Origin: Candidatus Omnitrophota bacterium | GTDB taxonomy: Bacteria; Hinthialibacterota; Hinthialibacteria; Hinthialibacterales; Hinthialibacteraceae | Reading direction: 5' to 3' | Assembly (NCBI GenBank): GCA_016934335.1 | Contig: JAFGTC010000316.1 | Location: 5,488 to 69,487 of the forward strand | Length of the DNA stretch: 64,000 bases | In this document: positions 31,837 through 55,261 of the stretch, piece after piece | Position numbering within the stretch: the first letter of the stretch is position 1 | How the letters are laid out: the number at the start of each line of letters is the position of its first letter | The notes under the pieces: generated by a model | The model's input: the letters and a program-made list of their open reading frames with translations, nothing else | Database searches by the model: none | Told to the model about the DNA's origin: nothing | Position numbers and translations under genes: made by a program

Positions 31837-32454
31837 TTACAGTTCCGTTCTGGAGGATAGAGCCATTGCCAGAGTGGTTTCGTCAGCGTATTCGAGATCG
31901 CTGCCGGAGGGGAGGCCGCGAGCCAGGCGGGTTACTTTGACATCTTTTTCTTTGAGGATTTCCTGCAGATAGACGGCGGTGGCGTCGCCTTCCATGGTGG
32001 GATTGGTGGCGAGGATCACTTCCCGAATGGGCGCCTTCACGCGATGGAGCAGTTTCGTGACGCCGATCTCGTCGGGGCCGATGCCGTCGATGGGCGACAG
32101 CGCGCCGCCGAGAATGTGGTAGACCCCTTTGAACTTGCCGGTGCGTTCGAGCGCCAGCATATCCTGGGGCTGCTCGACGACGCAAAGAAGGCTGGAATCG
32201 CGCCCGACGCCCTGACAGATGATGCAGGGATCCGTCTGGGCGAAATTGCCGCAGGACGAACACTGCCGCACTTCATCGCGCAGCTGCTCCAAGGCGTGGA
32301 TCAGGTCGCCGATTTCCTGCTTCCCCCGCTTGAGGAGAGCGTAAGTCAGGCGCATGGCCATGCGCGGGCCGATGCCCGGCAGTCGAGCCAATTGCTTGGC
32401 CGTATTTTCGACGGCGGGCATCCACGATAACGGGCGGTCGCTGCGCAGGTTCAT
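31837..32454 (-). CDS. recR: Recombination protein RecR
   Basis: HhH LARLPGIGPRMAMRL. Zn finger CSSCGNFAQTDPCIIC. Toprim VVEQPQDMLALERTG. Confidence 0.9.
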   Translation of the reverse strand: MNLRSDRPLSWMPAVENTAKQLARLPGIGPRMAMRLTYALLKRGKQEIGDLIHALEQLRDEVRQCSSCGNFAQTDPCIICQGVGRDSSLLCVVEQPQDMLALERTGKFKGVYHILGGALSPIDGIGPDEIGVTKLLHRVKAPIREVILATNPTMEGDATAVYLQEILKEKDVKVTRLARGLPSGSDLEYADETTLAMALSSRTEL

Positions 32455-32895: not shown

Positions 32896-34761
32896 TTAAT
32901 TCGAGCGCTCCGGTTTGATGTCGACGACTCGCCCCGGCATCTCTTCCATCAGTTTACTGAATATTTTGTTTTGTTGCACCTTCTCCATCAATTCCTTCCG
33001 GGACAGCGCCGGCGTCGTGGAAGGAGAATCGGCGGAAGGCTTTTTGGTAAGATTCAGATCGTCGCGCGGTTCACAGCGCAGCGTCAATTTTTTCCCGAAC
33101 GATTGTTGAATAAGCCCGGCCAGAATTTCACGGTTATTGGGCCTCTCTATCGTGCGCAGGCTGTACATGTTATCGGAAGGAATGGCGATCTGCAGAACAT
33201 CGCCGTTGATATCCAGGGCGATGCTTCCTTCCAAGGCGCCCGCAAGCATGGGATTTTCTCCCTCCAACTCTTTGAGGAATTGCCGCCAAATCGTATTGAG
33301 CGAATCGCTTGTATTAAGAGATTCATTTGCGCCGGCGCTCGTTTCAAGCGGCGCGGAATTCGCCTCCTCATGCTGATCGACAGGCGGCTCAGAATTTTCA
33401 TACGCTTCGAGAGGAGGAATAGACTCATTCAGCAGTTCGGTCTGCTTGGCGGGCGGATCGGCCGTCTTGGGGGGCGATTGAGTTGATGCTGAAACCGGCG
33501 TCGCGTGAGAAGATGCCGAGCCTGAAGATGCCGAGCCTGAAGACGCCGAGGGAGAAAACGCCGCGGCAGAGGGCGCCTCGGGGATGTTGATCGCAGCGCC
33601 GCCGCCCGCAGAGATTTTCTGAAGCAGATCTTCGATTTTGATCGCCTGGCCTGCTTTCGCCGCTTTGAGAGAGGCCATTTCCATAATAATGCGGCCCATG
33701 GATGAATTGCGGATGCGAATCTCGGCGTCCCACAATTGGTCGGTCATATAGAGAATTTGTTCAAGCGGCGTCAGAGCGGCGGTTTCCATCAGTTGTTTAC
33801 GATATTCGTCAGGGAGATCGAGGAGATCCACATTTTGAGCCGACACTTTAATCACCGCTAAATTCCGCAGAAACTGCAGACATTCGCTCAGGAAAAACGC
33901 CATTTCCTTTCCCTGATTGGCGAGTTTTTCGATAACTTCGAGAATCACAGGAAGATCGTGTTGGATGAGAGCGCGAATGTAGCGATCCAGCAAATCGAAT
34001 TCGATCGCTCCCATAACCTCTTCGACTTCCGGCAGATCCAGTTTTCCGGAGCAGAAAGCGATTAACTGGTCGAGCGAGAAGAGCGCATCGCGCAGGCATC
34101 CCTCCGATGATCGGGCCAAAAGGAAGAGAATGCGATCCAACTGCGAGGGATCGGCGAGTTCGATTTCGGGCTGCTGCTCAAGAATATAGCGCAGATGCTC
34201 GACGATGATCTGCGACGGAATGCGGCGAAACGGAAACCGCTGGCAGCGCGACAGGATCGTAGGCAGAATTTTCTGCAGTTCCGTCGTCGCCAAGATGAAG
34301 CGGCAATGCGCCGGCGGCTCTTCGAGCGTTTTCAGCAGGGCGTTGTTGGCCGCCTGGGAAAGCATGTGGCATTCGTCGATGATGTAGATCTTAAAACGGC
34401 CCAGAGACGGCGTGAAGCGGGCGTTCTCCCGCAGTTCGCGTATATTATCTACGCCGGTGTTGGAGGCGGCGTCGATTTCCAAAATATCGGGATGGATTCC
34501 TTGAGTGATCATGCGGCAGGTCTCGCACTGCCCGCAAGGATCTCCGTCCTTGAGATTTTCACAATTAAGCGCTTTGGCCAGAATGCGCGCCGTGGTGGTC
34601 TTTCCCGTGCCGCGGGGGCCGGAAAAAAGATAGGCGTTGGCGATGCGGCCCCGCTTCAGGCTGTGTTGAAGCGTGCGGGTGATGTGATCCTGCGCAAGCA
34701 CTTCGGCGAAGGTGTTGGGACGATACTTTATCGCAGAGACAATATAATTGGATGATGCCAT
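32896..34761 (-). CDS. dnaX: DNA polymerase III subunit gamma/tau
   Basis: KYRPNTFAEVLAQDHITRTLQ. Walker A FSGPRGTGKTTTARILAKALNCE. Zn module CGQCETC. DEAD-like IYIIDECHMLS. Start set at MASSNYIV. Confidence 0.9.
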   Translation of the reverse strand: MASSNYIVSAIKYRPNTFAEVLAQDHITRTLQHSLKRGRIANAYLFSGPRGTGKTTTARILAKALNCENLKDGDPCGQCETCRMITQGIHPDILEIDAASNTGVDNIRELRENARFTPSLGRFKIYIIDECHMLSQAANNALLKTLEEPPAHCRFILATTELQKILPTILSRCQRFPFRRIPSQIIVEHLRYILEQQPEIELADPSQLDRILFLLARSSEGCLRDALFSLDQLIAFCSGKLDLPEVEEVMGAIEFDLLDRYIRALIQHDLPVILEVIEKLANQGKEMAFFLSECLQFLRNLAVIKVSAQNVDLLDLPDEYRKQLMETAALTPLEQILYMTDQLWDAEIRIRNSSMGRIIMEMASLKAAKAGQAIKIEDLLQKISAGGGAAINIPEAPSAAAFSPSASSGSASSGSASSHATPVSASTQSPPKTADPPAKQTELLNESIPPLEAYENSEPPVDQHEEANSAPLETSAGANESLNTSDSLNTIWRQFLKELEGENPMLAGALEGSIALDINGDVLQIAIPSDNMYSLRTIERPNNREILAGLIQQSFGKKLTLRCEPRDDLNLTKKPSADSPSTTPALSRKELMEKVQQNKIFSKLMEEMPGRVVDIKPERSN

Positions 34762-34869
34762 GAGGGAACTTTTCCCAACGTAATGTACAGCCAGCCAGAG
34801 GCTAAACGCCCCCATCGGAAAAGCGCAGCGTCAAGCAAATATTCCGTATGCTTTATTTCAGCATATATT

Positions 34870-34972
34870 AAAGAGGCCGGGAACCCACGGCACATGCCGG
34901 GCATCGCTTAAGGCTGCTCCCTTTCGGGCCTGACCTAGTTCACAAGCCGACATTGCGCAGGCCCCGACCAAA
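34870..34972 (-). ncRNA. ffs: Signal recognition particle RNA (small/4.5S type)
   Basis: The minus strand reads GGUCGGGGCCUGCGCAAUGUCGGCUUGUGAACUAGGUCAGGCCCGAAAGGGAGCAGCCUUAAGCGAUGCCCGGCAUGUGCCGUGGGUUCCCGGCC. It contains the conserved domain IV core AGGUCAGG-CCC-GAAA-GGG-AGCAGCC with a GNRA tetraloop. The 5' GGGGCC can pair with the 3' GGUUCC. It lies immediately upstream of dnaX, which is the classic position. Confidence 0.65.
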
Positions 34973-35034: not shown

Positions 35035-35763
35035 TTAGGCGGATTTCTCGTAATCTGAAAGCGGTACGATCTTTACGCTCTTCACCGTCACCGGCTTGAT
35101 GGGAAGGCTGTTTTCGCCCGAGGGGCTGCGCGTCACGGCCGCTGTGGCGATTTTATCCAAAACATCCATGCCCTCGATCAATTCGCCGAAGACCGTGTAT
35201 TGGCCGTCGAGCTTGGCCGCGCGCCCGTGGCAGATGAAGAATTGACTGCCGGCGCTGTCGGGATTGCTGCTGCGCGCCATGGAAAGCGTCCCTTTGACAT
35301 GAGGCATGTTGTTAAATTCCGCCTTGATGTTATAGCCGGGGCCGCCGGTTCCCCAGCGACGAACGTCGTCTTCTTTGGAATTGGGATCGCCGCCCTGAAT
35401 CATAAAGCCTTTGATGACCCGGTGAAAGCGCGTTCCATCGAAAAAACCCTGACGGGCCAGTTTTTTAAAGTTTTCGACATGACCAGGAGCGACGTCGGGG
35501 AAAAAACGAAGAACCATCACCCCTAACGACGTCTCCATAACGGCCGCTTCTTCGATCTGTTTTTCGGGCACGGCGGGCTCCTTTTCTAGAACGATCTCCT
35601 GCTGAACCGCCTCCTTTTCAACGGCGGGCGCCTCAGCGGTCGGCTTTTCCGTGACTTCTTGATTTTTCTGGATTGAATTATTCGAGTTGGAGCAGGCAAA
35701 AATTAATCCGAGCCCCACGACCAGACTCATGGTTCGAAGCCAATGAAAAACGTTCTGTTTCAT
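35035..35763 (-). CDS. Cyclophilin-type peptidyl-prolyl cis-trans isomerase, secreted/lipoprotein
   Basis: Segments FHRVIKGFMIQGGD, GTLSMARSSNPDSAGSQFFI and DGQYTVFGELIEGMDVLDKI. Signal peptide MKQNVFHWLRTMSLVVGLGLIFACS. Start set at the internal Met. Confidence 0.85.
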   Translation of the reverse strand: MKQNVFHWLRTMSLVVGLGLIFACSNSNNSIQKNQEVTEKPTAEAPAVEKEAVQQEIVLEKEPAVPEKQIEEAAVMETSLGVMVLRFFPDVAPGHVENFKKLARQGFFDGTRFHRVIKGFMIQGGDPNSKEDDVRRWGTGGPGYNIKAEFNNMPHVKGTLSMARSSNPDSAGSQFFICHGRAAKLDGQYTVFGELIEGMDVLDKIATAAVTRSPSGENSLPIKPVTVKSVKIVPLSDYEKSA

Positions 35764-36154
35764 TGTTAAGATCCTCATTTCACTCATTTTCGATATTTGA
35801 GAATTGATAGTCATGAACGAAATGTTTATTCGATTGCGCCAAGATCGCTTTTCTTGACTATGAGTGAAGACTGTACTCAAAGAGCGGCATGTATGCAAGG
35901 GTTAGAGATTTGATCTCCATGAAAGCCCGATACGATCACCGATCGCACAAAGATGAAATTTTTTTTTCATGACGACTTTGGCCGATTCTCTCAAGTTGCT
36001 TGATTTCGTCGCGCCAGAGGAGAGAATTTCTTGAATGGATAATCGTTGAAATTCTGATATGATTGAATTTTAAGGGAATTATCGAAAAAGTGATTCTCTT
36101 GGCCTGTTTTTTCCTCCCGTATTTCAGAAAAAAACTCCGGCTAGGGATCGGGAA

Positions 36155-39100
36155 ATGAGACAGCGGCAGCTTTTTTTTGTTTACTTTTTATTGATTTTCG
36201 CCACTCTGCACCGCGGGATGGATTCCTGCGCCGAAATGCGGAGCACCCGACACCATGACGCCTCTCATTTCGCGTCTGCATGGACGTCCGGTTTACCGAA
36301 TCAATCTGCAGATCCCCATTTAATCCGCTTGTTCGCCTGGACTTATCGCCGGGACGATTCCACTCAGCCGCCGGTTTTATGGCGGTTCAATCGCTTGGAG
36401 AAGCAACCCGAAATATCCTGGGGCGCTCTGCCGGAGGGGAGCGAGTATTCGAACATAACGGCGGCGCACGGACGGCTTTGGGTATATGTACAAAACGAAG
36501 ACGGGTGGAGCCTCTTTTCTGCCGGCATGAACGCGGAATCCGCCCAATGGCGCCCGGCGAGTTCCAATATCAATGAAAATATAGAAAGTTTCTTTCTCGA
36601 TTCTAACGCCGATCCCCTGTTGATTTTGGAGAAAAATGGGAAATGGTTCGTTCGGACGGGGGGTTTTACCGGCGGGGGGGAGGCGTTGCGATGGGATGCG
36701 ATGCGAGAGATTTCTCTGTTCGAAAAGAATCAATTGACGCGTGAGGCAAAAAAAGAGGATGCGGCGCGCGACATGGTCGGTGAATTTGACCTCCGTTCCC
36801 AAGCGATTCTGCTGGCGTTTTCATGCAAGGAAAACAGGCGGGATGCTGTAAAAATCCGCTATCGAATCAGCGCCGGCAAAACCCGGTCTTATGGCCCCTG
36901 GAGCGAACCGCTGCCCGACTCCGTCATCCAACTTAACCAGCGCGGACGTTACTTTCAATATCAGATTTCTTCTGCGCCGGCGAGCGGGCAAGACGCACTC
37001 ACCTTACCGAATTTGGAATTAATCTACACATTCGATGAGTCCGAACCGCAAAACGAAGCCAAGTCCGTCAAATCCGAAGGCCGGCCGGGAAAAGGCGGAT
37101 CGAGCGCCGGCGCCGGGTTGGGAGCAGCAGTAGGATCAAGCGGTCTTACGGCCGAGGCTGGCGCGGCGGGCGCCGCTGTTTTGGAAAACGCCGGCGATGG
37201 GATGACAAGCGCCGGCGCCGGAAGCGAATCGTCTGATTCTCCTGCAAAAACCGGCGCCGCCGATTCCGGCGATCCGGGAGCAAGTAATTCTCAGGATCAA
37301 ACGCCAGCCGCTTCGCCGGCTCAAGAAGAAAATCCATCTGAAATTGAATCCGACCGGCAGGACGATCAACAAGAAGCAAGCGCCACACTCTCCGGCGATT
37401 CCGCCCTGCAAGAAGAAGATTTTTCACAGGAAGATGCGAAAGAAAAAAATCCCGAAGAAGAGCGCTCAAACCAAACCGAGAACGGCGCATCCCTTCAACC
37501 TCCACCCAATGAACCGGACGCAGATGGTGATTCTTCAGAAGCATCTCCCGAAAGCGAACCGACCGATCCGCAAAGTGTTCCGGATGCGGATCCCGGCCAG
37601 CCCGAATCGACGCCCGACGCCGATCCTCGAAGCCCGGCGTCGTCTCCCTCGTCAAATCCTCCCCATTCTCCTCAAAACCAGCCATTATCCCAAGAGAATC
37701 CTCCTGACGGCGGCGTTGCAGACGATGAGAAAATAGGCGCCGGCAGAGAGACGAACGTTGAATCCGGCTTGAGTGATCATGAAGATCAAGAATCGTCAGC
37801 GCCGGCAATGGATAACCGGAACAAAGCGGGGAAAGGTAAAAAAACCACGGCAGGGCAAGAAAAAACAACGCCGTCATCCGGCATAAATGAAACCAATGAA
37901 TCAGCTGGAGATGCAAAAGAACACAACCCTACGCCGCCGGCGGCGAATCGAGATCAGCTGCAAACGAATCGCGAACCGGCGTCTTTGTCCAACGCATCTC
38001 CTCAAAAAGGCTTCACCGGCGCCAATCAACCGGGCGTTGAGAATACTATTCCACCCGGAGAAGAAGACGGCGCTTCAAACAATGGACATGCAAACTCATC
38101 CTTATCGCCCTCCGATTTCCGGGATCTTCCAAATTCAGCCGGCGAATCTTTGAACAGCCGCCCTGCAGCATTCGCTTCTTCAGGCGGAGCAAGTACAAAC
38201 GCCTCCCGGGTAAAGCAGGCCTCGCCGGAAATTTCGGAAGAAGGCTCGGGATCCAGCGGAACATTGGAAGGGACATGGAAAGAGAGGAATAAGTCATCCT
38301 GGCTGCTGCTCGTTCTTATCATACTTGCGGCGTCCTACGCCGCTTACCGCCTGATGCGCCAATCTCGCACGAAAGGCGCCCCTGTTGAAGTAGATGTTCA
38401 AAATGAAAATTGGCGCGAAGGATGGATTGAAGACCGCCAGGAGCAAAGCGGCGTCTGGGAGGCTGTTCTGCATTTCCATCCCGACGTTAAAGCGGCCAAT
38501 TTAAGCGGCGGCGTCCTTCTGCTCATGAATCAAAATCATGCCGTCAAAAAAGTATCGCTCCCCGATCTATGGTTCCCAAAACCGGCGGAAGAAGAAAACA
38601 ATCCGACTGAAGCCATAGTAAATTTAAAAGCACCAATCGACAGCGCGCAGATGGCGAAATACAGAAACAACTTATTTGTGTTCGGCATAGATTCTCACGG
38701 GCAGGAGAAAGCCCTGCACATTGCGCTTCCCGCCGGCGAAAAAGCAATGAAGGGCAGGAAGATTTCTCATCCAAGCGGATTGCAATCGATCCGCTCCCTC
38801 AAAGCAGACGGCGACATTTTATGGGCGCTGGGCGAAGCCCCGGACGGTCTTCGTGTTTTGGCCGCTTCCATGGGATTTTTAAAAGGGCGTGCCTGGCGCG
38901 AAGAATCCCCGGCCGCGTTGGATAAGGGAGAAATAATAGCGCTTTCCAGCGGCGAAGAAACGATGATCGCTGGAATTCCCGACAAGGATCGAGATCATTT
39001 GTGGATCTTTCAGCAGGAAAAAAACCGGCAAGGGCGATGGCGCGCGGCAGTCAAAACCCGCTTTAACCAAAAAAACGTTCTTCTTTATGCGGCCAGGAAT

Positions 39101-39373
39101 CGCTGCGTCTTGATCGAATCGACCAAGGAGGACGCCTCCATTGGAATTCATCTTTTCCCGCGAGACGAGCAAGGACGTTTTTCGACGCGGGCGGAAAATC
39201 ACGCTCCGGCGCCCCATGCGGGGAAATGGCTCGATCTGGAAATCGCCGGCGGCTGCCTCTACCTATTAGGCCGCGAGACATCCTCTGATCCAGAATCCAA
39301 CTCAGGGAGATTTTGTCTGCTGGCGGCGCGGCTTGGAAATTTATTTCAAGAGAATCAGCCGAAATCGAAATGA
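36155..39373 (+). CDS. 1072-aa single-pass membrane protein. From the N-terminus: signal peptide, a ~280-aa N-terminal domain, a ~400-aa acidic Pro/Ser/Asp/Glu-rich disordered region, a TM helix, and a ~340-aa C-terminal domain.
   Basis: Signal peptide LFFVYFLLIFATLH. Low-complexity stretch ...SEASPESEPTDPQSVPDADPGQPESTPDADPRSPASSPSS.... TM helix SSWLLLVLIILAASYAAYRLM near residue 710. No motif I can name. Confidence 0.6.
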   Translation: MRQRQLFFVYFLLIFATLHRGMDSCAEMRSTRHHDASHFASAWTSGLPNQSADPHLIRLFAWTYRRDDSTQPPVLWRFNRLEKQPEISWGALPEGSEYSNITAAHGRLWVYVQNEDGWSLFSAGMNAESAQWRPASSNINENIESFFLDSNADPLLILEKNGKWFVRTGGFTGGGEALRWDAMREISLFEKNQLTREAKKEDAARDMVGEFDLRSQAILLAFSCKENRRDAVKIRYRISAGKTRSYGPWSEPLPDSVIQLNQRGRYFQYQISSAPASGQDALTLPNLELIYTFDESEPQNEAKSVKSEGRPGKGGSSAGAGLGAAVGSSGLTAEAGAAGAAVLENAGDGMTSAGAGSESSDSPAKTGAADSGDPGASNSQDQTPAASPAQEENPSEIESDRQDDQQEASATLSGDSALQEEDFSQEDAKEKNPEEERSNQTENGASLQPPPNEPDADGDSSEASPESEPTDPQSVPDADPGQPESTPDADPRSPASSPSSNPPHSPQNQPLSQENPPDGGVADDEKIGAGRETNVESGLSDHEDQESSAPAMDNRNKAGKGKKTTAGQEKTTPSSGINETNESAGDAKEHNPTPPAANRDQLQTNREPASLSNASPQKGFTGANQPGVENTIPPGEEDGASNNGHANSSLSPSDFRDLPNSAGESLNSRPAAFASSGGASTNASRVKQASPEISEEGSGSSGTLEGTWKERNKSSWLLLVLIILAASYAAYRLMRQSRTKGAPVEVDVQNENWREGWIEDRQEQSGVWEAVLHFHPDVKAANLSGGVLLLMNQNHAVKKVSLPDLWFPKPAEEENNPTEAIVNLKAPIDSAQMAKYRNNLFVFGIDSHGQEKALHIALPAGEKAMKGRKISHPSGLQSIRSLKADGDILWALGEAPDGLRVLAASMGFLKGRAWREESPAALDKGEIIALSSGEETMIAGIPDKDRDHLWIFQQEKNRQGRWRAAVKTRFNQKNVLLYAARNRCVLIESTKEDASIGIHLFPRDEQGRFSTRAENHAPAPHAGKWLDLEIAGGCLYLLGRETSSDPESNSGRFCLLAARLGNLFQENQPKSK

Positions 39374-39411: not shown

Positions 39412-41136
39412 TTACTGCGTTCCCTCGATGCGATTGAGCTCGGACTGCATCTGGCTTTGAATGCGATCAAGGCGAGCCTGTTTATCCAGCCAATCGGCGC
39501 GAATCGCTTCGAAAGGCTTGGCAAGCAGAGAGGAAAGCGACGGCAGAAATTCTTCAAACCATAAATCCCGAAACTCCTCTTCCCCCTCCCGCAATGCGCG
39601 CCGCGCCCCGCGCGCATATAGAAGCGCCAGCCAAACCAGATAGAACACGATCAGAAACAACAGACTTTGCAGCAGAGAAGCGGCCCCGAATAAAGAGATG
39701 AAAATCGATATCAGCTCGCCGAAGCCGCCGATTGACAAGAGCGGCGACTCCGAGCGGGACCATTCCAACAAAAACGGCTGTATAAACGGGAACCAGATCA
39801 GCGGCAGATACACCAGCGATTTTCGCCAGGGGCCGGGAGCGGGCATCGAGGATGATATGCGCTTGACGACTCGATCTTCGTACGCGTCGAGCAGGCGATG
39901 AAATCCTTTTTCAATCGCCGCAGAATAATCCGGCGGCTCATCCAGACGAGCGATCAATTCGGGATGTTTTTCTTCTATATCTCTCCGTATGGAAAGAAGC
40001 CGGGACGAAGCGGATTTTCCCTGCCGGCGCAACAGGTCGCGGGGGGAATCGGAAAACGCATCCGTTCCGCGGGTCAAAGCCATTCGGCCGCCCAAAAAGG
40101 AGATCAGACCGGCCATGGGATGAAAGACCAGCCTCAAAACCGGCCAATGCTGCACTCGCTGAAAGAAGAGCCCGCTGCTGATGCGATGCTGCACCGGCCC
40201 TAAAACAAGGATGCGCTGCCACACCATCTCGAAATACTCGTTATCGAAACATTCGCGCAGACCGTTTGCGATTTCGTCCAGCACCCCGTCCAAAACGGCG
40301 ATGCGGTCGGAGAGCGCGTAATAACTGCGGATTTTTTCTGTATTTTTATTGAACTCGGCGCGCAGATTCTTGACTTTGGCGCGCAGGATTTCTTCGGGCG
40401 AGTGCCGTCGTATCAGCCGCTCGTAAAGGCGCGGATACTCGTATTTTTGTGGATTCAAGGCGGAAATCATTAACAGGCGGTCGCCGGTGGGCGCCGGGAT
40501 GTCGCGCCGGGCGCACTCTTCCTTGAGATAATCCAGAACTTCCCGCCGGGCGGCCTCTAGAGCGACTCGCCCCTCCAACTGATCGATTTTGTTCAGGATG
40601 ATCAGATAATTTTCATGGCTTTGCGCGACCGATTCCAACTGATCGATAAACTCATGGTCGCCGTATTTGCGCGGTGTGATCACCCACACCAATCCCTGCA
40701 AATAGCGCGACAGTTTTTGAACATCGTCGCGATGCGATTGAAAGCGGCTGTCGTAATCGGGAAAGTCGATCAGCACCACATTGCGCAGGAAGTCGCTCTG
40801 ATGGGTTTGATAATCCATGCGATCGCGCATGGCGCCCGCTAAACGCTTCTGAAGAAACGGCTGGTCGGCCTGATGGCAATAAGCAACCGATTTTTTGGTG
40901 CCCTCGTCCAGGATGTCGCTGTCAATGGAGATGCGCGAACCGGCCAGAAGATTGATCAGCGAAGTTTTCCCGACATCCTTTCCGCCCACGATTCCATACA
41001 GGAAAAGATTGTCTTGGCCGGATTCCCCCGTTTGATAAAGCAGGCGGAGGAGCGGCTGATCGGCCGTTTGAGCCAGTTCTTTATTCAATCCGTCTAATTC
41101 GATGCGCAAGTCGTTAATTTTGATCATGACCGGCAA
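39412..41136 (-). CDS. Membrane-associated GTPase (dynamin-like / YfjP-like P-loop GTPase), downstream member of a tandem pair
   Basis: G1 GIVGGKDVGKTS. G3-like VVLIDFPDY. G4 ILNKIDQ. C-terminal hydrophobic paddle LVYLPLIWFPFIQPFLL ... LISIFISLFGAASLLQSLLFLIVFYLVWLALLY. Confidence 0.6.
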   Translation of the reverse strand: MPVMIKINDLRIELDGLNKELAQTADQPLLRLLYQTGESGQDNLFLYGIVGGKDVGKTSLINLLAGSRISIDSDILDEGTKKSVAYCHQADQPFLQKRLAGAMRDRMDYQTHQSDFLRNVVLIDFPDYDSRFQSHRDDVQKLSRYLQGLVWVITPRKYGDHEFIDQLESVAQSHENYLIILNKIDQLEGRVALEAARREVLDYLKEECARRDIPAPTGDRLLMISALNPQKYEYPRLYERLIRRHSPEEILRAKVKNLRAEFNKNTEKIRSYYALSDRIAVLDGVLDEIANGLRECFDNEYFEMVWQRILVLGPVQHRISSGLFFQRVQHWPVLRLVFHPMAGLISFLGGRMALTRGTDAFSDSPRDLLRRQGKSASSRLLSIRRDIEEKHPELIARLDEPPDYSAAIEKGFHRLLDAYEDRVVKRISSSMPAPGPWRKSLVYLPLIWFPFIQPFLLEWSRSESPLLSIGGFGELISIFISLFGAASLLQSLLFLIVFYLVWLALLYARGARRALREGEEEFRDLWFEEFLPSLSSLLAKPFEAIRADWLDKQARLDRIQSQMQSELNRIEGTQ

Positions 41137-42766
41137 ATATCCTCAGTGCGCTCAACAAGGGATCGGATGGATCCATGGTGACGTTCCGGCGAGCCGATTG
41201 AATCTTATGAAGATCCTCCATTAAAGACTCGCGGATGACATCGCGAATCCGCTGTTGGAAGTCGCGCTTGGTTTTTTCGAATTTCCCTAAAGGAAGAAAC
41301 TTGAAGACGCTGGGAATCAACGCCCAACTGCCAAACCCGGGCACGGTGAACACGTCCGCGATCAGAGCCGCCAGCAGGCCAACGGCCAGTAAAGGATCGT
41401 TTTTCAGAGACGCGGAGATGGAGTCGGAAGCGATTAATTCACGGCAATCCTCCTCAAATCGGCGGGCGACGCCGGCCAGTTCCCGGCGGAAGGAAGGATC
41501 GTCCGGCGCACAACTCGCGAAAATATCGCCGATCAATCCCGCGTCTGCATGGCTGTGAAGCGCCTGACTGATCGCTTCGCGATGATCGAAGAGCCGCGCC
41601 GACGCCTCATGGCTCAGTTTGTCGGCATCCAGATGGAGCAAATGCGCGGCGGCGTCTTCGCGGTGGCTGCCGAACGCCAGCGTGAAACTGCTGCGCAGAG
41701 CGCCTTTGGTGGTGATGCGCTTCAAAAATTGAAGAAGGTTGCTGACGCTGAAGCGCTTCAATCCCAGATGCTCCAACACCTGCAGCGCTTCGTCATTCAA
41801 GACGCGATGCATGGGGATCGGCGGTTCGTTGGCGAGCCGCTTCTGAGCGATTTGTTCGGCGCGCTTCTGCAGTTCGACAAAAATTTTGCCCCGCCGTTCA
41901 TTCTCTTTCACCAGTTTTTCGGCGTGCGGCGCGAGCCGATCGAATATCGGCCGATGCGGAGCGCGCGTATTCGTCGTAAAAAGATCGTCGCGAAATCGCA
42001 AAAATTCCGGCTCGCTGTCGAAGATCGGCTTGTCGCCCAAATCGGGCAGCACATGCAGCGTATCCACGCCAAAAAATTCTCGGACGCCTTGTAAATCGGG
42101 ATGATCGAGTTCGATGCGGTCTCGCCCGCGATTGTTGAGGACGCAGAGGCGACGCTGCTGGAGGGATTTCGCCTGCGCGACCGGCTCCTCGTAATCGCGA
42201 TGGTACAACGTTTCTTCATCGACGATGTAAACGACCACATCCAGCCAGGGAAGCAGCGTCATCGCCAACCGGTTTTCATACAGAGCGCGCGTAGTGTTGA
42301 TGTCCGGCAAGTCGAACAGAACCATGCGCTCCCAGGACGCATTATCGGTTAAAATCCAATGGATCGCTCCCGGCGCGCCGGCTTCGGAGCGGATTTGGTC
42401 GAGCGAAAAACATTCCCGCTTCCACCGGGGGAGAAAAAGCGGCGTGAATTGACGCTCGAGATCTTCGAGGCTTTGATGAAAGCGCGTCGAGGAAAGCATG
42501 ACAGGGCCGGAGGTGTTGTGCGCCTTCCAGCCGGTGATGCAGGCCTCCCGCAGGCATAAACTGTTGAAAATCGTGGATTTTCCGCTGCCGGTGCAGCCGA
42601 TGAATCCCACCCAGGGAGGGCGGTTTTCCCCCATCCGCCGGCGGAGGGCGGCCAGCATGGCCAAATCCAAAACAGGCTCGACCTCTTCGGCGGGCAGAGA
42701 CAACGAGCGCAGCCGATCCGCCGAGAGAACCACCGTATCCAAAGCCTGCTGATTCGAATCCGTCAT
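41114..42766 (-). CDS. GTPase (divergent dynamin-like / YfjP-like), upstream member of a tandem pair
   Basis: G1 GFIGCTGSGKSTIFNSL. G3-like MVLFDLPDI. C-terminal hydrophobic hairpin LLAVGLLAALIADVFTVPGFGSWALIPSVF. Overlaps the downstream GTPase gene by 23 bp. Confidence 0.6.
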   Translation of the reverse strand: MTDSNQQALDTVVLSADRLRSLSLPAEEVEPVLDLAMLAALRRRMGENRPPWVGFIGCTGSGKSTIFNSLCLREACITGWKAHNTSGPVMLSSTRFHQSLEDLERQFTPLFLPRWKRECFSLDQIRSEAGAPGAIHWILTDNASWERMVLFDLPDINTTRALYENRLAMTLLPWLDVVVYIVDEETLYHRDYEEPVAQAKSLQQRRLCVLNNRGRDRIELDHPDLQGVREFFGVDTLHVLPDLGDKPIFDSEPEFLRFRDDLFTTNTRAPHRPIFDRLAPHAEKLVKENERRGKIFVELQKRAEQIAQKRLANEPPIPMHRVLNDEALQVLEHLGLKRFSVSNLLQFLKRITTKGALRSSFTLAFGSHREDAAAHLLHLDADKLSHEASARLFDHREAISQALHSHADAGLIGDIFASCAPDDPSFRRELAGVARRFEEDCRELIASDSISASLKNDPLLAVGLLAALIADVFTVPGFGSWALIPSVFKFLPLGKFEKTKRDFQQRIRDVIRESLMEDLHKIQSARRNVTMDPSDPLLSALRIFAGHDQN

Positions 42767-42908: not shown

Positions 42909-44303
42909 TTAGAACAGAGACCATTCCGAAACGGAGACCGGTTCGCCGATGTCGCCGATGACATACCGACCATATCCATAGATGCCGCCTTCCCAAAGAA
43001 TTTCACACGCGCCTTCAGCGGCCGTTGAAGGAACATGAACGTCAATTTCACCTTGCGTACCATGCCATTCCGATGTGGCAGCGGGATTTCCTTGGTCGTC
43101 CGTAGCGCCCAGATCATACAATTCAGTATCTTCCGTTGTATTAATTTTATAGTATGATATTATTTTGCCATCTTTTTCTTCCTGCCCGCTGACGTCATGA
43201 ACGGCCAGCCATCCCGGAGCAAAAACGCCGCCGTTGGCCCCATAACTATTCCAACTCGGTGTAGAGTAAGCGATAACATACTGCAAACCATCAGCGGAAT
43301 CCATGTCAGAAATAAACGATGTACGGTAGACATTATTAGGATCGAGACCAAGAGATTCCATATCTTCCGCCGAATATTTTTGAGCCTCCCACAATTCGGC
43401 ATCTTTTACTGCTTCTGTTTCAAAATCATACCAGCGATAAAAAGTTGTACCGGTTCCGCCGTCGCTTCCTGGATAAGTGGAAGCATAAAGAACTGGATCG
43501 AGGTTGACTCCACCATGAACGATGATTTTGCTGGCGCCGCCGCTAGCGTTGCCATATCCATTCGGTACATAGAAAGTTTGGGTAAAGTTAACGCCGTCGT
43601 CCGTCACCAATTTGCGGAAGCCGTGACCTTCCCGCCAAGTTTTACCGCCCGCAAAAATTACGGTATCCGCTCCGCTTCCCATGACTTCCACGTCACCCCA
43701 TCGCCACGAATAATATTGAGCTCCTCCAGAGCCGTCGATGCCATCCGCGGGTACTTCAAAAGCAACGGCAGGCTCTTCAAATCCGCCCTGACCATCCGGC
43801 GCATATCGCAAAATCATATTTTTGTAGCCGACAAAAATTACTCCATCTTCTGAAACTCCCCACTTAAAATAATAGCTATCGGGAGTGCCTCCACCTGCGA
43901 CATATGCATCACTGAGAGGATAAGGCGCAATTCCAACGACCAGGGCTATACCCATCGGTTGGCCTGTGGCAGGATCGATCCAGATCAAGGAACGATCGGG
44001 ATATTCTGCGGCCAGCGCCTCATCGGCGCCCTCAGCGCCTTCAACGATGCCGTTTTCGCGGATGCCAAGCAAAAGTCGCTGATCGTCATAGCGCTTCAAA
44101 CCGGAAAAAGAATCCGTAGGACTATCACCTTGAAACCAAGTGTTATCAAATGGATATCCATCTTGCACTTTCAAGATTTCTACAGGACTATTGCCGGATG
44201 TGTTGAGAAATTCCCAAATCGGCTCAATCTCCTGTGTGAATGCGCAGGGCGTCACTACGCCTGCGATTAATACAATGACAGCCATTCCAAATGCTTTTTT
44301 CAT
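42909..44303 (-). CDS. Secreted Asp/Gly-rich hypothetical protein. Paralogue of 8696..10102. Ends in EWSLF.
   Basis: Signal peptide MKKAFGMAVIVLIAGVVTPCAFTQ. Shares motifs with the 8696..10102 protein. Lies 142 bp upstream of the GTPase pair on the same strand. Confidence 0.6.
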   Translation of the reverse strand: MKKAFGMAVIVLIAGVVTPCAFTQEIEPIWEFLNTSGNSPVEILKVQDGYPFDNTWFQGDSPTDSFSGLKRYDDQRLLLGIRENGIVEGAEGADEALAAEYPDRSLIWIDPATGQPMGIALVVGIAPYPLSDAYVAGGGTPDSYYFKWGVSEDGVIFVGYKNMILRYAPDGQGGFEEPAVAFEVPADGIDGSGGAQYYSWRWGDVEVMGSGADTVIFAGGKTWREGHGFRKLVTDDGVNFTQTFYVPNGYGNASGGASKIIVHGGVNLDPVLYASTYPGSDGGTGTTFYRWYDFETEAVKDAELWEAQKYSAEDMESLGLDPNNVYRTSFISDMDSADGLQYVIAYSTPSWNSYGANGGVFAPGWLAVHDVSGQEEKDGKIISYYKINTTEDTELYDLGATDDQGNPAATSEWHGTQGEIDVHVPSTAAEGACEILWEGGIYGYGRYVIGDIGEPVSVSEWSLF

Positions 44304-44545
44304 CAAAACATCTCCTTTCAACAACAAGAATTGTTAATGAATTAAATTATATACTCAAAATTGATTAAGAAAAGTTATTCGAAGCATTTTTCAAGAAGCA
44401 TATGTCAACAAATCGATTTATTGTCCAAAAAAAATTTCGCTATAGACCGATTGTGATAATTATGGGAAAATACAAACATCCGATCTTCCCCAATTATTCT
44501 TGGCGGAGATTCAATCGAATTCAATGAATCAAGGAGAATGCAGAC

Positions 44546-45997
44546 ATGCAGAATGAAAATCGATTTTTCAAACCAATGATTGTATGGGCGAGCTTAATAG
44601 GGATTCTGATTGGGGGTCATTTGGCCGGCGCGGCGACCGTGACCGTCAATCCCGGCGACAGCATCCAGGCGGCCATTGATTCAGCCGATCCGGGCGATGA
44701 AATCATCCTGAACGCCGGCGTCTATGAAGAAGACATCAACATCGGCGATATGAATGCGCCGCTCAACAGAAAAGACAATATTACTCTCAAAGCCGCGGAC
44801 GGCGCCGATGTGGAAATTCATATTCCCAACTCTGCAAGCCGTCTTGAATTGCTAGGCGGCCTGGGCGCGGATTTCGGCCCGGCGGATCGCATGGGATTTT
44901 TGGTTTATGGAGACGGCGTAACAGTGGAGGGAATTTCCTTCACTCAACTGAGCGGAGAAGTTAATAATTTTGAAATCAGCGTCTTAGTCACCGTCATCAG
45001 CAACGATGTAACCTTCCGAGACTGCGAGTTCATCGGCGTCGGAGCGGAAGCGGCCGGCGACGCCGTGGGATTGGCCGTCACTCCCTTAGACGCCATCGCT
45101 CTTGATCAGGGACTGGGCGGTTTAGCGACCAATCTCACGGTGGAAGACTGCGTCTTCCATGATCTCGCCTACTCCTATGGAAACGCCAATTTTCTCCAGG
45201 AGTTAGGCGTTCCGGCCCCTTCGCCCGAAGCAACTCTTACAGGCTGTGAGTTTTATGACTGCGGGACATGCATCAACATGGATGACGGTCTGGCCACGCT
45301 CGTAGATTGTTATATTCACGACAACCAGGGAACGGGAGTCGACGCCTCCGACGACGGCGTAACCTTGATCAACTGCCGAATCGAAAACTGTCTGGAGCAC
45401 GGGGTCGAGATCAGCGACTCGGAAAGCGAAGACGACGAACCGCAGGAAAATCCGATCGTCACAATCGAGAATTGCCTCATTCTCAACTGCGGAACCGATA
45501 CGAACCATAATGGAATCAATTCCGAACATGGAACCATCACCGTGAAAAACACCGTCATCAGCGGCAGCACCGGACCCAATGTATTTTTCGAAACGGAAGA
45601 CGGCCGCATGACCACGGCGACTTTCGACCATTGCGACATTTACAATTCTTTGATCGGAACCGCCATCGGCACAACCGCCAGCCCCCAAGACGTCATCACT
45701 CTGACTATCACCAACTCCAACATCGTTGATTTAGACGGCATCATCAACGATGCCGGCGCCTTTTCGACCATTACGCTGGATTATTGCAATATCTTTGTCT
45801 CCGGAGAGCCTTACTTACCGGATCAGGAATTCATCACGGCGACCAATATGCTCTCAGCCGACCCCCTGTACGTCGATCCGGATAACGGCGATTTCACTTT
45901 GCAGCCCGGATCTCCCATGGCGACGGCAGGCCAGGGCGGAACATATATTGGTTCGCAAGGATTGGAGACTCGAACGCAAGGCTGGATGCTTCATTGA
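44546..45997 (+). CDS. Secreted right-handed parallel beta-helix repeat protein (pectate-lyase fold; possible polysaccharide lyase/hydrolase)
   Basis: Signal peptide. Motif NPGDSIQAAIDSADPGDEIILNAGVYEEDINI. Many short PbH1-like repeats: ENCLEHGVEISDS, ENCLILNCGTD, NTVISGSTGPNVFFE. Confidence 0.65.
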   Translation: MQNENRFFKPMIVWASLIGILIGGHLAGAATVTVNPGDSIQAAIDSADPGDEIILNAGVYEEDINIGDMNAPLNRKDNITLKAADGADVEIHIPNSASRLELLGGLGADFGPADRMGFLVYGDGVTVEGISFTQLSGEVNNFEISVLVTVISNDVTFRDCEFIGVGAEAAGDAVGLAVTPLDAIALDQGLGGLATNLTVEDCVFHDLAYSYGNANFLQELGVPAPSPEATLTGCEFYDCGTCINMDDGLATLVDCYIHDNQGTGVDASDDGVTLINCRIENCLEHGVEISDSESEDDEPQENPIVTIENCLILNCGTDTNHNGINSEHGTITVKNTVISGSTGPNVFFETEDGRMTTATFDHCDIYNSLIGTAIGTTASPQDVITLTITNSNIVDLDGIINDAGAFSTITLDYCNIFVSGEPYLPDQEFITATNMLSADPLYVDPDNGDFTLQPGSPMATAGQGGTYIGSQGLETRTQGWMLH

Positions 45998-47407: not shown

Positions 47408-48856
47408 ATGAACAAATCATCCTGGAGCCGCCGGTCGTTTTGCCGTTATTTGGCGGGAGGCGCAGCCGCCTTGGCCGCGCCCATGAACCTTCATGCCGGC
47501 GCCTCGCCCGCCAAGCCGTGGAACTTTGTCTTCATTCTTGTGGATGATTTAGGATGGAGCGACCTGGGCTGCTACGGCGCCGATCTTCATGAAACGCCCT
47601 ATATCGATCGCTTCGCAAGCCAATGCACGCGCTTCAGCGACGCCTACGCCGCCAGCCCGGTCTGCACTCCCACCCGCGCCTCCATCATGACCGGCAAGCA
47701 CCCCGCCCGGCTCCACATGACCGTCTGGCGCGAAGATACGCTGAGACCTCCCAATCGCAATCGTAAACTCATAACGCCGCAATGCGTCAGCGACCTGCCC
47801 CATGACGAATTCACCATCGCCGAAGCGATGCGAACCTCCGGCCGCCAGACCGCGCACATCGGCAAATGGCACCTCGGCGGCGCGTCGCATTACCCCGAAA
47901 CCCAGGGATTCGACGTCAACATCGGCGGAACCCACTGGGGCGCGCCCAACAGTTTTTTCTATCCCTACCGGGGCGACGAATATTACGGCGAATACCGCTA
48001 TGTCCCCCATCTGGAATTCGGCGAGCCGGGCGAATATTTGACCGACCGTTTAACCGATGAAGCGCTGAACGTCATGGAGAAGATGAAGGACGATCCCTTC
48101 TATCTCCAACTGGCGTTTCATACGGTTCATTCCCCCATCGAAGGCAAACCGGAACTGGTGGAATATTATCAAAAGAAACGAAAAGCAGGCATGCATCATA
48201 AAAATGCAACATACGCCGCCATGGTGCACAGCCTGGATGAAAATGTGGGGCGAGTGCTGCAGAAAATCGATTCGCTGGGAATCGCCGATCGAACGGTGGT
48301 GTTCCTGTTTTCCGACAACGGCGGCGTCGCTAACGAAATCCGGGGTCAATTCGTCACCGACAACCATCCCCTGCGCTCGGGCAAAGGCTCGTTATACGAA
48401 GGGGGCGTCCGCGAACCTTTGATGGTGCGCTGGCCGGGCGTTACCCGGGCGGGGGCCGTCTGCCGCGAGCCGGTCTGTTCGATCGATTTCTATCCTACCA
48501 TGCTGGAGATCGCCGGCATCCCGGGCGACGCCGATCAAAACCGGCGCATGGATGGAATCAGTTTCGCCTCCCTGTTAAAAGATCCCGGCGCCCGGTTGGA
48601 TCGCGAGGCGCTGTATTGGCATTACCCGCATTATTACCCAACCACCACCCCGGTCAGCGCCATTCGCAAAGGAGATTGGAAACTGCTGGAATATTACGAA
48701 GACGGCCATTTGGAATTGTATAATCTCAAAGACGATCTTTCGGAAGTAAATGACCTCGTCCAAAAGAATCCCGGCAAGGCCGCCGCGCTGCACGCACAAT
48801 TACAAAACTGGCGCAGCCAGGTCAACGCCCAACTCCCGACCCCAGGCTCGCCATAA
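47408..48856 (+). CDS. Sulfatase (formylglycine-dependent), TAT-secreted
   Basis: TAT motif SRRSFCRYLAGGAAALAAP. Sulfatase signature VLVDDLGWSD...SPVCTPTRASIMTGK (C-x-P-x-R). GKWHLG. Confidence 0.9.
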   Translation: MNKSSWSRRSFCRYLAGGAAALAAPMNLHAGASPAKPWNFVFILVDDLGWSDLGCYGADLHETPYIDRFASQCTRFSDAYAASPVCTPTRASIMTGKHPARLHMTVWREDTLRPPNRNRKLITPQCVSDLPHDEFTIAEAMRTSGRQTAHIGKWHLGGASHYPETQGFDVNIGGTHWGAPNSFFYPYRGDEYYGEYRYVPHLEFGEPGEYLTDRLTDEALNVMEKMKDDPFYLQLAFHTVHSPIEGKPELVEYYQKKRKAGMHHKNATYAAMVHSLDENVGRVLQKIDSLGIADRTVVFLFSDNGGVANEIRGQFVTDNHPLRSGKGSLYEGGVREPLMVRWPGVTRAGAVCREPVCSIDFYPTMLEIAGIPGDADQNRRMDGISFASLLKDPGARLDREALYWHYPHYYPTTTPVSAIRKGDWKLLEYYEDGHLELYNLKDDLSEVNDLVQKNPGKAAALHAQLQNWRSQVNAQLPTPGSP

Positions 48857-50648: not shown

Positions 50649-50668
50649 GGTCGCTCTCCTCTTCAAAT

Positions 50669-54963: not shown

Positions 54964-55261
54964 GGTTCATTCCTCCCCTATAGGTATTTACCACTGATTA
55001 AAGAATCCTGCGATTCTACTTCTACAAAAGAATCTCTCAGATTCGATAGACCGAGTCAATAGCCGCAGAACGTTTGTTAAAAATTCAGGAGATTGGCTTT
55101 AGAAAAGCGAGTTGAACAGATTCTGGATTTAAGACATGATGAAGGGTGATGACAGAACGATTGCACCGGAAAATTTTTTGGCAAAAATCTCGTTGTTTTT
55201 GCAGAGTGTGATACACTGTATTCCATGGAATATCTGTAATGAAGCGTTGAGGATACAAACT

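Follow-up and report, generated by a model that had tools for sequence, protein, structure and literature searches.

Paired bacterial dynamin-like proteins (BDLPs) are an established class, typically encoded in side-by-side operon pairs (PMC6104087), so one more pair is in itself unsurprising. The pair described here lies in a 64,000-nucleotide stretch (the window, in whose numbering positions are given) of contig JAFGTC010000316.1, from a metagenome-assembled genome (MAG) labelled Candidatus Omnitrophota bacterium, and its two minus-strand genes encode proteins that we call G1p (upstream) and G2p (downstream). The locus probably encodes a heterotypic pair of BDLP/mitofusin-type proteins that tether or remodel membranes in a nucleotide-driven manner. 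What is new is the subfamily itself, which is sizeable, carries wrong annotations in Hinthialibacterota-like and Planctomycetota genomes, and has a membrane signature of its own. Also new are a G3 motif that reads invariantly DxPD in both partners, as it does in actinobacterial relatives that appear to be of the DynA/DynB type, and a degenerate G4 motif in the first partner.

The closest characterised system appears to be the DynA/DynB pair of Streptomyces, to which the locus is connected through an actinobacterial tandem pair and which did not figure among the comparisons made in an initial annotation of this DNA. In Streptomyces the two proteins are encoded in tandem and both are needed; DynB, with two transmembrane (TM) segments, recruits DynA, function is impaired by the P-loop mutations K74A in DynA and K129A in DynB, and the pair stabilises Z-rings and modulates septation via SsgB, SepF2, and SepX (PMC8748795; bioRxiv 10.1101/2025.06.23.661029). 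G1p and G2p share the layout of an anchored partner and a hairpin partner, and recruitment of one by the other may be supposed by analogy. However, their stalk and membrane regions, with a WFPxxQP element and a PGFG hairpin, are specific to the G1p/G2p family. Unlike Streptomyces, the lineages that carry them (Hinthialibacterota or "Omnitrophota"-labelled MAGs, and Planctomycetota) are not filamentous sporulators, and the DynB partners SsgB, SepF2, and SepX are actinobacterial. Judged from the sequences, the window pair would be better regarded as a subfamily of its own, related to the DynA/DynB type, than as its orthologue.

Other dynamin-like systems resemble the pair in part. Campylobacter jejuni DLP1 and DLP2 (Cj-DLP1/2) have been shown to tether membranes heterotypically and appear to have canonical G motifs, aligned under the consensus in the published motif figure (PMC6104087). 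They also form an adjacent operon pair with a BDLP fold, and both rank near the top of the full-length fold matches (E 1e-8 to 1e-7), but they are larger (84.5 and 71.2 kDa), have an assembly domain and a lipid-binding tip instead of TM anchors, and show 11-15% identity. Nostoc punctiforme BDLP1 (2J68/2J69), the best overall fold match, shares the N-terminal helices, the GTPase domain, the four-helix bundles of neck and trunk, a hydrophobic paddle close to the tip of the trunk, and C-terminal helices that return. By contrast, it is a protein of about 690 aa that was characterised on its own, and its paddle binds membranes transiently and nucleotide-dependently, whereas the G2p segments are hydrophobic enough to be integral. 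DynA of the Bacillus subtilis type is a fused pair and so functionally equivalent to a tandem pair; our broad G2p family profile aligns to both of its halves, including the G3 motif and the following xDS...H, but it is a single polypeptide of 1,199 aa with a canonical DTPG and no TM anchor.

Mitofusin/Fzo1 proteins are like G2p in their GTPase domain, helical bundle, two adjacent membrane helices near the C-terminus, and returning helix, and heterotypic pairs of them exist; however, they are eukaryotic, larger, and canonical in G3, and the sequence relationship is at superfamily level at most. Finally, TbMfnL of Trypanosoma brucei has been presented as a "new dynamin superfamily", an approximately 60-kDa GTPase with a coiled coil and two consecutive C-terminal TM segments with a predicted loop, and its bacterial homologues were found mainly in the Planctomycetota-Verrucomicrobiota-Chlamydiota (PVC) group, including Planctomycetaceae (bioRxiv 10.1101/2023.06.28.546890). 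Compared by description only, the G1p/G2p family is similar to it in architecture and PVC range, but MfnL has "conserved G1 to G4 motifs" and its description does not mention gene pairs (bioRxiv 10.1101/2023.06.28.546890). None of the retrievable accessions of our family matched the MfnL homologues listed in the preprint, several of the Planctomycetota members being without accession; the broad profile search mostly re-found the close relatives of the window pair and did not reach eukaryotic or named PVC proteins.

Fold and family of the two proteins

AlphaFold2 models were built from family alignments of 36 sequences for G1p and 40 for G2p. The predicted local distance difference test (pLDDT) and predicted template modelling (pTM) scores were 80.6 and 0.73 for G1p, and 84.0 and 0.70 for G2p. 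In both models N-terminal helices are followed by an alpha/beta G domain, about 200 residues of long helices, a hydrophobic element, and a returning C-terminal helix. Against the PDB, the top Foldseek matches of both models were all dynamin-superfamily proteins, aligned over about 650-700 columns. They included Nostoc BDLP (2J68 for G2p, E 5.5e-10; 2J69 for G1p, E 3.8e-8), both chains of Campylobacter DLP1/DLP2 (5OWV/5OXF; 5oxf_C for G1p, E 1e-7; 5owv_A for G2p), and mycobacterial IniA (6J72/6J73). Drp1, dynamin, SynDLP, OPA1/Mgm1, Fzo1/mitofusin, EHD, and IRG proteins were matched as well, and fragments of Fzo1 and MFN1/2 gave the best local TM-scores (TMt 0.41-0.47). These matches bear out the initial annotation, which had read both proteins as dynamin-like with a helical middle region; an Era- or EngA-type GTPase with no helical stalk or paddle would have spoken against it, whereas a stalk and a hydrophobic element are predicted in both. 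Its alternative of a YfjP-like pair found no family match in Pfam or NCBIfam at E <= 1, and YfjP/YeeP-type small GTPases were set aside, G1p and G2p being twice their size and carrying stalk and membrane elements.

Several features that mark BDLPs are present. A GTPase domain with a helical neck (bundle signalling element) and trunk (stalk) is seen in the models and in the Foldseek alignments, and in both proteins a hydrophobic element, predicted to bind membrane, lies between the trunk helices and the returning C-terminal helix. The G1 and G2 motifs occur in both proteins, which are encoded side by side like operon pairs of the class; a standard G3 is lacking from both and a standard G4 from G1p. 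As for size, the remark in the initial annotation that the two are shorter than canonical BDLPs holds against Nostoc BDLP and Cj-DLP1, but they are the same size as IniA and the actinobacterial DynA/DynB-type proteins (approximately 550-570 aa).

At the sequence level, both proteins marginally passed the Pfam model MMR_HSR1 (G1p 23.4 and G2p 23.2 bits, with a cut-off of 21.9), and some family members bear precomputed hits to Dynamin_N (PF00350). In a database of 5.8 billion sequences, the broad family profile matched a Bacillus "dynamin" of the DynA type (E 5e-9) and actinobacterial Dynamin_N GTPases (E 1e-17 to 2e-18); in the PDB it matched SynDLP (E 3.5e-6). From the PDB, the sequence profiles recovered only fragments, of Era, EngA, IRG, and SynDLP, in matches that skip the atypical G3 region. 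The G1p and G2p families align to each other over 390 columns (hhalign, 97.5%, E 6e-12), and the two are distant paralogues. Pfam, NCBIfam, and PADLOC hold no dedicated model for the subfamily, and the public records are named "50S ribosome-binding GTPase" (MBN2330163.1, G1p) and "hypothetical protein" (MBN2330162.1, 571 aa, identical to G2p), in keeping with the earlier suggestion of an undescribed subfamily. Such labels hide a predicted membrane-remodelling machine in poorly known phyla.

The gene pair and its distribution

The G1p gene (41114..42766, minus strand) encodes 550 aa from an ATG in the list of open reading frames (ORFs). The G2p gene (39412..41127, minus strand) encodes 571 aa from its ATG, and an alternative TTG start at 41136 would give an ORF of 574 aa (39412..41136). 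The ATG at 41127 is more likely to be the true start, because the NCBI protein also has 571 aa and a candidate Shine-Dalgarno sequence, GAGGA (41140..41144, minus strand), lies within the 3' end of the G1p gene about 12 nt upstream. The junction ATGATCAAAATTAA (41114..41127, minus strand) then contains both the start of G2p and the stop of G1p, the two genes overlapping by 14 nt. The initial annotation had listed the same two adjacent ORFs, of 550 and 574 aa, with an overlap of 23 bp, which is arithmetically right for the TTG start but gives way to 14 nt for the likelier ATG.

Both are real genes and not chance ORFs, as 77 homologues of G1p and 92 of G2p, nearly all full-length, were found with E down to 1e-247 or below. 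G1p was missing from its own homologue matches because, in the 90%-identity protein collection, it is clustered with 55-aa fragments (the representative and the other listed members), one of which is named "DUF342 coiled-coil"; this looks like a clustering artefact. Promoter and terminator scans of the locus were at or below shuffle expectation and uninformative.

In a scan of one genome per GTDB species, relatives of G2p were found in 234 genomes, and an exhaustive profile search of 1.84 billion cluster representatives returned 206 clusters at E <= 1e-30 with matches along the full length, which gives a subfamily of about 200 clusters at 50% identity. The best 80 of the 234 relatives fall into two groups. 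A close clade (43-66% identity) comprises MAGs labelled Omnitrophota, "bacterium" or Desulfobacteraceae, and a distant clade (23-32% identity) extends across Planctomycetota (Phycisphaerae, Planctomycetia, Tepidisphaerales), where all loci observed were in MAGs. The closest named relatives of the window MAG include Candidatus Hinthialibacter antarcticus, of the phylum Hinthialibacterota.

The pairing is kept throughout this range. When six-frame ORFs of 84 loci were scored with hidden Markov models (HMMs) of both families, 70 of the 75 loci having at least 1.7 kb of upstream sequence had a G1p-like ORF immediately upstream in the same orientation, in Hinthialibacterota-like and Planctomycetota genomes alike. 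From the G1p stop to the G2p start, the distance is -11 nt in 11 of 25 close-clade loci and -4 nt (ATGA) in 23 of 50 distant-clade loci, and in most remaining loci the two genes lie within a few nucleotides of each other (e.g., +1 to +3 nt). The translationally overlapping tandem arrangement pointed out in the initial annotation is therefore a conserved trait, with modal overlaps of 11 or 4 nt. Across phylum-level distances the genes keep their order, their adjacency, and an overlapping junction, which argues for an obligate two-subunit function, and overlaps of this kind are consistent with translational coupling.

A conserved third component was also considered. The only recurrent extra gene encodes a DUF5610 protein of about 230 aa. 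In 15 close-clade loci (for example L001 11453-12136 and L004 10173-10880) it follows the pair on the same strand after roughly 190 nt, often with a bifunctional PGI-type gene behind it, and it does not occur in the window. This protein could be an accessory factor or simply conserved synteny. ClpC lies near the pair in 10 loci, which probably reflects synteny.

Nucleotide-binding motifs and membrane elements

All positions in this section are on the minus strand. The GTPase domain of G1p spans aa 50-250 (42017..42619), where the MMR_HSR1 match falls and the model shows alternating strands and helices. Its P-loop, GFIGCTGSGKST (aa 54-65, 42572..42607), was verified by translation and has the family pattern GxxGCTGxGKST; G54, G57, C58, G60, G62, K63, S64, and T65 are invariant in the 36-sequence alignment, as are T78, W80, H83, N84, and T85 of the switch I region TGWKAHNT (aa 78-85, 42512..42535). 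T85 is probably the threonine that contacts Mg and the gamma-phosphate. The G3 motif DLPD (aa 152-155, 42302..42313; family pattern DLPDIN) is likewise invariant and has an Asp at the glycine position of DxxG. The sequences GCTGSGKST (aa 57-65) and DLPD singled out in the initial annotation are thus present by translation and conserved in the family. At the G4 position, G1p has NRGRD (aa 212-216, 42119..42133) and not N/TKxD. R213, G214, and D216 are invariant in the close clade (pattern NRGxD), while the Asn alone is conserved across 70 G1p-like sequences, and no G5 is defined for the family. The GRD within this motif had suggested an atlastin/GBP/Sey1-like protein, which was rejected since the Arg is not conserved; atlastin, GBP, and Sey1 were not among the top 50 Foldseek matches of either model.

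Behind the G domain of G1p, the neck and trunk (aa 253-447, 41426..42010) are all-helical in the model, with a long helix at 272-312, and lie within the full-length alignment to BDLP-type structures. They lead to a single hydrophobic segment of about 36 aa, the predicted hairpin or paddle DPLLAVGLLAALIADVFTVPGFGSWALIPSVFKFLP (aa 457-492, 41291..41398), with a maximum Kyte-Doolittle hydropathy of 2.08 in a 19-residue window. It is built around a conserved PGFG turn; P458, D471, F478, P485, and P492 are invariant in the 36 sequences, and the turn is retained as pG.g across the 70 G1p-like sequences. Across the clade, G1p-like proteins retain GxxxxGKST, H.T.GP, PWxD, the hairpin turn, and a C-terminal DPL..AL. 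DxPD was found by regular expression in 56 of the 70, a count independent of the pattern used for retrieval.

In G2p, the GTPase domain covers aa 40-240 (40408..41010), as placed by the MMR_HSR1 match and the secondary structure of the model. In its P-loop GGKDVGKT (aa 48-55, 40963..40986), the residues G48, G49, K50, D51, V52, G53, and K54 are invariant in the 40-sequence alignment and T55 is at least 90% conserved; the P-loop is mostly kept in the broad clade. T77 of the switch I DEGT (aa 74-77, 40897..40908) is invariant in a broad alignment of 43 sequences. The G3 motif DFPD (aa 121-124, 40756..40767) is followed by xDS and has the family pattern D[FL]PDxDSRF, with D121, P123, D124, and S127 invariant in the broad clade. 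In contrast to G1p, a canonical G4, NKID (aa 179-182, 40582..40593), is present, with N179 and K180 at least 90% conserved and D182 invariant; the family patterns are NKxD for G4 and SA for G5. GGKDVGKT, DFPD, and NKID, which the initial annotation had also reported, were verified by translation and are invariant or nearly so in the family.

The helical neck and trunk of G2p (aa 244-427, 39847..40398) are supported by the model and by full-length Foldseek alignments to BDLP, IniA, and Cj-DLP. They are followed by a membrane region (aa 437-512, 39592..39819) made up of helices 441-458 and 466-479 and the hydrophobic start of helix 482-569. Hydrophobic segments lie at approximately aa 440-460 and 475-512 (Kyte-Doolittle 19-residue maximum 2.53), and the hydrophobic span has a median of 73 aa in G2p-like proteins. 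C-terminal hydrophobic elements, also described in the initial annotation, are therefore present in both proteins by hydropathy. The signature WFPFIQP (aa 445-451, 39775..39795), with W445, F446, and P451 invariant across the broad clade, belongs to a family element PLxWFPFxQP with about 35 very hydrophobic residues. An amphipathic helix (aa 513-569, 39421..39591), part of the model helix 482-569 with pLDDT of about 94, returns from the membrane. At about 20% identity, T77, D121, P123, D124, S127, D182, W445, F446, and P451 remain invariant in the G2p family.

The DxPD motif was placed by the secondary structure of the models and by a family HMM alignment to Bacillus-type DynA. D152 of G1p and D121 of G2p each terminate a hydrophobic beta-strand (149-152 in G1p), which is the Walker-B/G3 position, and the consensus VLlDLPDiDSefedH aligns column for column with VVMDTPGVDSTDDAH and TLVDTPGADSINARH from the two halves of DynA. 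Because DynA has DTPG in this alignment, the second Asp occupies the G3 glycine position of DxPG. In hhalign comparisons, the DLPDINT of G1p was aligned with DAPDVDS and DLPDHDS of actinobacterial proteins. The absence of the DxxG glycine, which the initial annotation had noticed in these two proteins, is a family-wide trait, as DxPD stands in place of DxPG in both partners throughout the clade. The P-loop Lys and Ser/Thr, the switch I Thr, and the Walker-B Asp stay invariant, from which we infer that nucleotide binding, and probably hydrolysis, may be retained with an altered switch II chemistry. The catalytic and switch II chemistry probably departs from that of textbook dynamins. With DxPD in both proteins and a first partner that has no canonical base-recognition motif, the pair offers a natural system in which to ask how much rewiring of switch II dynamin-type catalysis can tolerate.

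Possible functions and genomic neighbourhood

Outside the family, the nearest proteins with a name come from Actinobacteria and also have DxPD, namely a Micromonospora "GTPase" (P0312, LLDLPDFDS) and a Nocardioidaceae protein (ILDAPDVDS). At the Nocardioidaceae locus L086, the upstream gene encodes L086_A (570 aa), with P-loop Lys K74, G3 DAPD, no canonical G4, and one modest hydrophobic segment. The downstream gene encodes L086_B (562 aa), with P-loop Lys K74, G3 DLPD, G4 NQVD, and two strong TM helices. An ABC-F type ATPase (10419-12101, plus strand; two ABC_tran and ABC_tran_Xtn) lies directly after this tandem pair. The layout, the K74 position, which is that of the P-loop Lys in DynA and in L086_A, and the taxonomy lead us to infer that the L086 and Micromonospora proteins are of the Streptomyces DynA/DynB type. 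The likeness to G1p/G2p comprises same-strand tandem genes for proteins of approximately 550-570 aa, DxPD in both, an upstream protein with one weak hydrophobic segment and no canonical G4, and a downstream protein with N[KQ]xD and two TM helices. By hhalign, the broad G2p profile matched L086_B at 98.7% (E 3.8e-16, 192 columns) and L086_A at 97.8% (E 7.5e-13, 135 columns), and the G1p profile matched L086_A at 97.3% (E 2.6e-11, 137 columns) and L086_B at 96.2% (E 2.7e-9, 164 columns).

Several points weigh against reading the locus as a BDLP pair related to DynA/DynB. The Foldseek TM-scores are low (0.2-0.35) and are no proof of equivalent domain packing, although such scores are expected of hinged multi-domain proteins. 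Dynamin_N (PF00350) stayed below its gathering score of 27 bits for G1p (17.5) and G2p (11.6), and the paddle region of G1p was modelled at pLDDT below 50. Homology to the DynA/DynB type is detectable over the G domain alone, at about 24% identity in 135-190 columns; the anchored partners correspond clearly, whereas the upstream ones lack a clean one-to-one match, L086_A scoring similarly against both window families. The lost G3 glycine and the degenerate G4 of G1p could mean that one or both proteins hydrolyse GTP poorly or use another nucleotide. Beyond the DUF5610 gene of the close clade, the genomic context offers no functional hint.

A BDLP-type pair of this kind could work as follows. 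The two genes would be translated as a coupled unit. G2p would be integral to the cytoplasmic membrane through its C-terminal hydrophobic helices with WFPxxQP, with both termini in the cytoplasm and its GTPase domain and neck/trunk facing the cytoplasm, while G1p would insert its short PGFG-turn hairpin, like a BDLP paddle, into the cytoplasmic leaflet. By analogy with Cj-DLP1/2 and Streptomyces DynA/DynB, the anchored G2p may recruit and associate with its paddle partner G1p. Nucleotide binding would then make the G domains associate and the helical bundles move about their hinges, so that the complex could tether, deform, fuse or seal the cytoplasmic membrane. The fold, the pairing, the motifs, and the hydrophobic elements are seen directly in the alignments and models; membrane topology, heteromer formation, nucleotide hydrolysis, and membrane remodelling are predicted from them. 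As to the physiological role, we favour general membrane maintenance or remodelling, followed by a DynAB-like function at the division site, and consider an anti-phage role beyond incidental membrane repair, or a ribosome-associated role, unlikely.

A dedicated division function would make the two proteins a DynA/DynB-type division pair, in which G2p is a divisome scaffold that recruits G1p for constriction or scission and possibly replaces FtsZ functions in Planctomycetota without FtsZ. The closest relatives outside the family, apparently DynA/DynB-type actinobacterial pairs, share gene order, DxPD, the degenerate G4 of the first partner, and two TM segments in the second. DynAB stabilise Z-rings and affect septation in Streptomyces (PMC8748795; bioRxiv 10.1101/2025.06.23.661029), and the family is found widely among Planctomycetota, which reportedly have no ftsZ and divide by an unknown mechanism (PMC4164004). 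However, the homology to the actinobacterial pairs is confined to the G domain, and none of SsgB, SepF2, and SepX, all actinobacterial, was seen among the gene neighbours examined, no dedicated search having been run. No division or cell-wall cluster lies beside the pair in the window and none recurs in the related loci. We therefore regard this function as unlikely, though worth keeping in view. FtsZ-independent division and complex membrane architecture in Planctomycetota are unexplained, and the closest characterised relatives, DynA/DynB, act at division septa. Since the pair is also widespread in this phylum, it is a concrete candidate that can be tested in genetically tractable planctomycetes. 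We found no paper that links dynamins to Omnitrophota or Hinthialibacter or that describes the G1p/G2p pair in Planctomycetes. A bolder and equally doubtful proposal is that these proteins belong to an ancient, unrecognised clade of two-component, membrane-anchored DxPD dynamin machines in Actinobacteria (the DynA/DynB type), Planctomycetota, and Hinthialibacterota-like bacteria. In Planctomycetota, which have no FtsZ, they would then help the cells to divide or bud or give shape to the invaginated cytoplasmic membrane, and they might be bacterial relatives of the eukaryotic mitochondrial MfnL family. If so, the invariant Asp would point to a catalytic or switch mechanism that sets these proteins apart in the dynamin superfamily.

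The divergent motifs could alternatively mean that the pair has lost catalysis together with the G3 glycine and the G4 of G1p and acts as a scaffold that binds nucleotide but is inert. DxPD replaces DxPG invariantly in both partners, G1p-like proteins retain just the Asn of G4, and substitutions of the G3 glycine in Ras-like GTPases impair the conformational change of switch II. On the other hand, this glycine contacts the gamma-phosphate by its backbone NH, which any residue can supply, and a catalytic or cation-binding group might even be gained through the conserved Asp. The P-loop Lys and Ser/Thr, the switch I Thr, the Walker-B Asp, and the NKxD of G2p are invariant at about 20% identity, which argues for retained nucleotide chemistry. 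P-loop mutants of Streptomyces DynA and DynB, which may or may not carry DxPD themselves, lose function. On balance, a scaffold without hydrolysis seems distinctly improbable, and nucleotide-driven action of the BDLP-type pair is preferred.

The neighbourhood of the pair bears on defence. The window is ordinary chromosome around the locus, with SRP RNA, dnaX, recR, cyclophilin, MoxR, thymidylate kinase, and sulfatase genes, as well as an aminotransferase, an amylase, a BatA/VWA protein, an NtrC-type regulator, and several secreted proteins without family assignment. In other genomes the neighbours vary, being ClpC/McsAB and BamA, type II secretion genes, or glycosidases. A link to phage defence had been raised in the initial annotation, and it could take the form of an anti-phage or abortive-infection module, LeoABC-like or sealing membranes in the manner of DynA to delay phage lysis. 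B. subtilis DynA does give phage resistance through its action on the membrane (PMC8844932, PMC12998192), and a self-contained two-gene module whose neighbours differ between genomes would suit such a role. The search results speak against it. PADLOC gave no significant match for the pair (LeoBC for G1p at E 0.03 and 11.4 bits, none for G2p), and a PADLOC and family scan of the ten neighbours matched only MoxR and thymidylate kinase, nothing relevant to defence. In viral contigs of IMG/VR, there was one partial match to the GTPase domain only and no pair.

The distribution points the same way. The 234 species-representative genomes with the family span Planctomycetota and Hinthialibacterota-like lineages, with some synteny in the close clade (DUF5610, PGI, ClpC), and this looks nearer to vertical inheritance than to patchy defence islands, as judged without a phylogenetic test. 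No defence island surrounds the window locus, and its neighbours are of the dnaX, recR, SRP RNA, peptidyl-prolyl isomerase (PPIase), and sulfatase kind; LeoA/LeoB/LeoC and other PADLOC defence GTPases were set aside on these grounds. Membrane repair that incidentally protects cells from phage lysis would belong to the membrane-remodelling explanation itself. We consequently consider a dedicated defence function very unlikely.

A housekeeping, ribosome-associated pair of TRAFAC GTPases of the Era, EngA or YihA type is implied by the name "50S ribosome-binding GTPase" and would agree with MMR_HSR1 as the sole Pfam model above threshold, with Era and EngA/Der as the best sequence-level PDB matches over the P-loop and switch I, and with the housekeeping context, but this reading is largely refuted and hardly credible, given NCBIfam equivalog scores of 10-24 bits against cut-offs of 116-325 in matches confined to about 30-45 residues at the P-loop and switch I, the lack of a KH or other RNA-binding domain in the Pfam scan, about 300 residues of helical bundle and hydrophobic segments after the G domain, and full-length fold matches to the dynamin superfamily and not to Era or EngA.

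Some further features of the window were recorded. The bacterial small signal recognition particle (SRP) RNA (34871-34969, minus strand; Rfam RF00169, 71 bits) is flanked by dnaX (32896-34815) and the cyclophilin PPIase gene (35035-35898), with recR at 31837-32454, in a typical core-genome cluster. Convergent with the G2p gene is an ORF of 1,072 aa (36155-39373, plus strand). Its N-terminus has a hydrophobic segment, and about 450 aa of it are of low complexity with many Ser, Pro, Glu, Asp, and Asn residues; besides a C-terminal region, it also has a TM-like segment, LLLVLIILAASYAAY, in its interior, and neither Pfam nor PADLOC gave a match. On the other side, an ORF of 472 aa (42909-44327, minus strand) ends 142 nt upstream of the G1p gene on the same strand and begins with a signal-peptide-like N-terminus, MKKAFGMAVIVLIAGVVTPCAF. 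It also had no Pfam or PADLOC match and is probably unrelated to the pair, because it is not conserved beside it in other genomes. A protein of 1,502 aa with multiple WD40 beta-propellers and FG-GAP repeats is encoded at 55136-59644 (plus strand). In addition, the window encodes a beta-helix/DUF5123 protein (44546-45997), two sulfatases (47408-48856, plus strand; 48861-50747, minus strand), a Laminin_G_3 protein (52216-54963), and an alpha-amylase-family protein (61445-63199), a set that fits the polysaccharide-degrading lifestyle typical of PVC-like bacteria.

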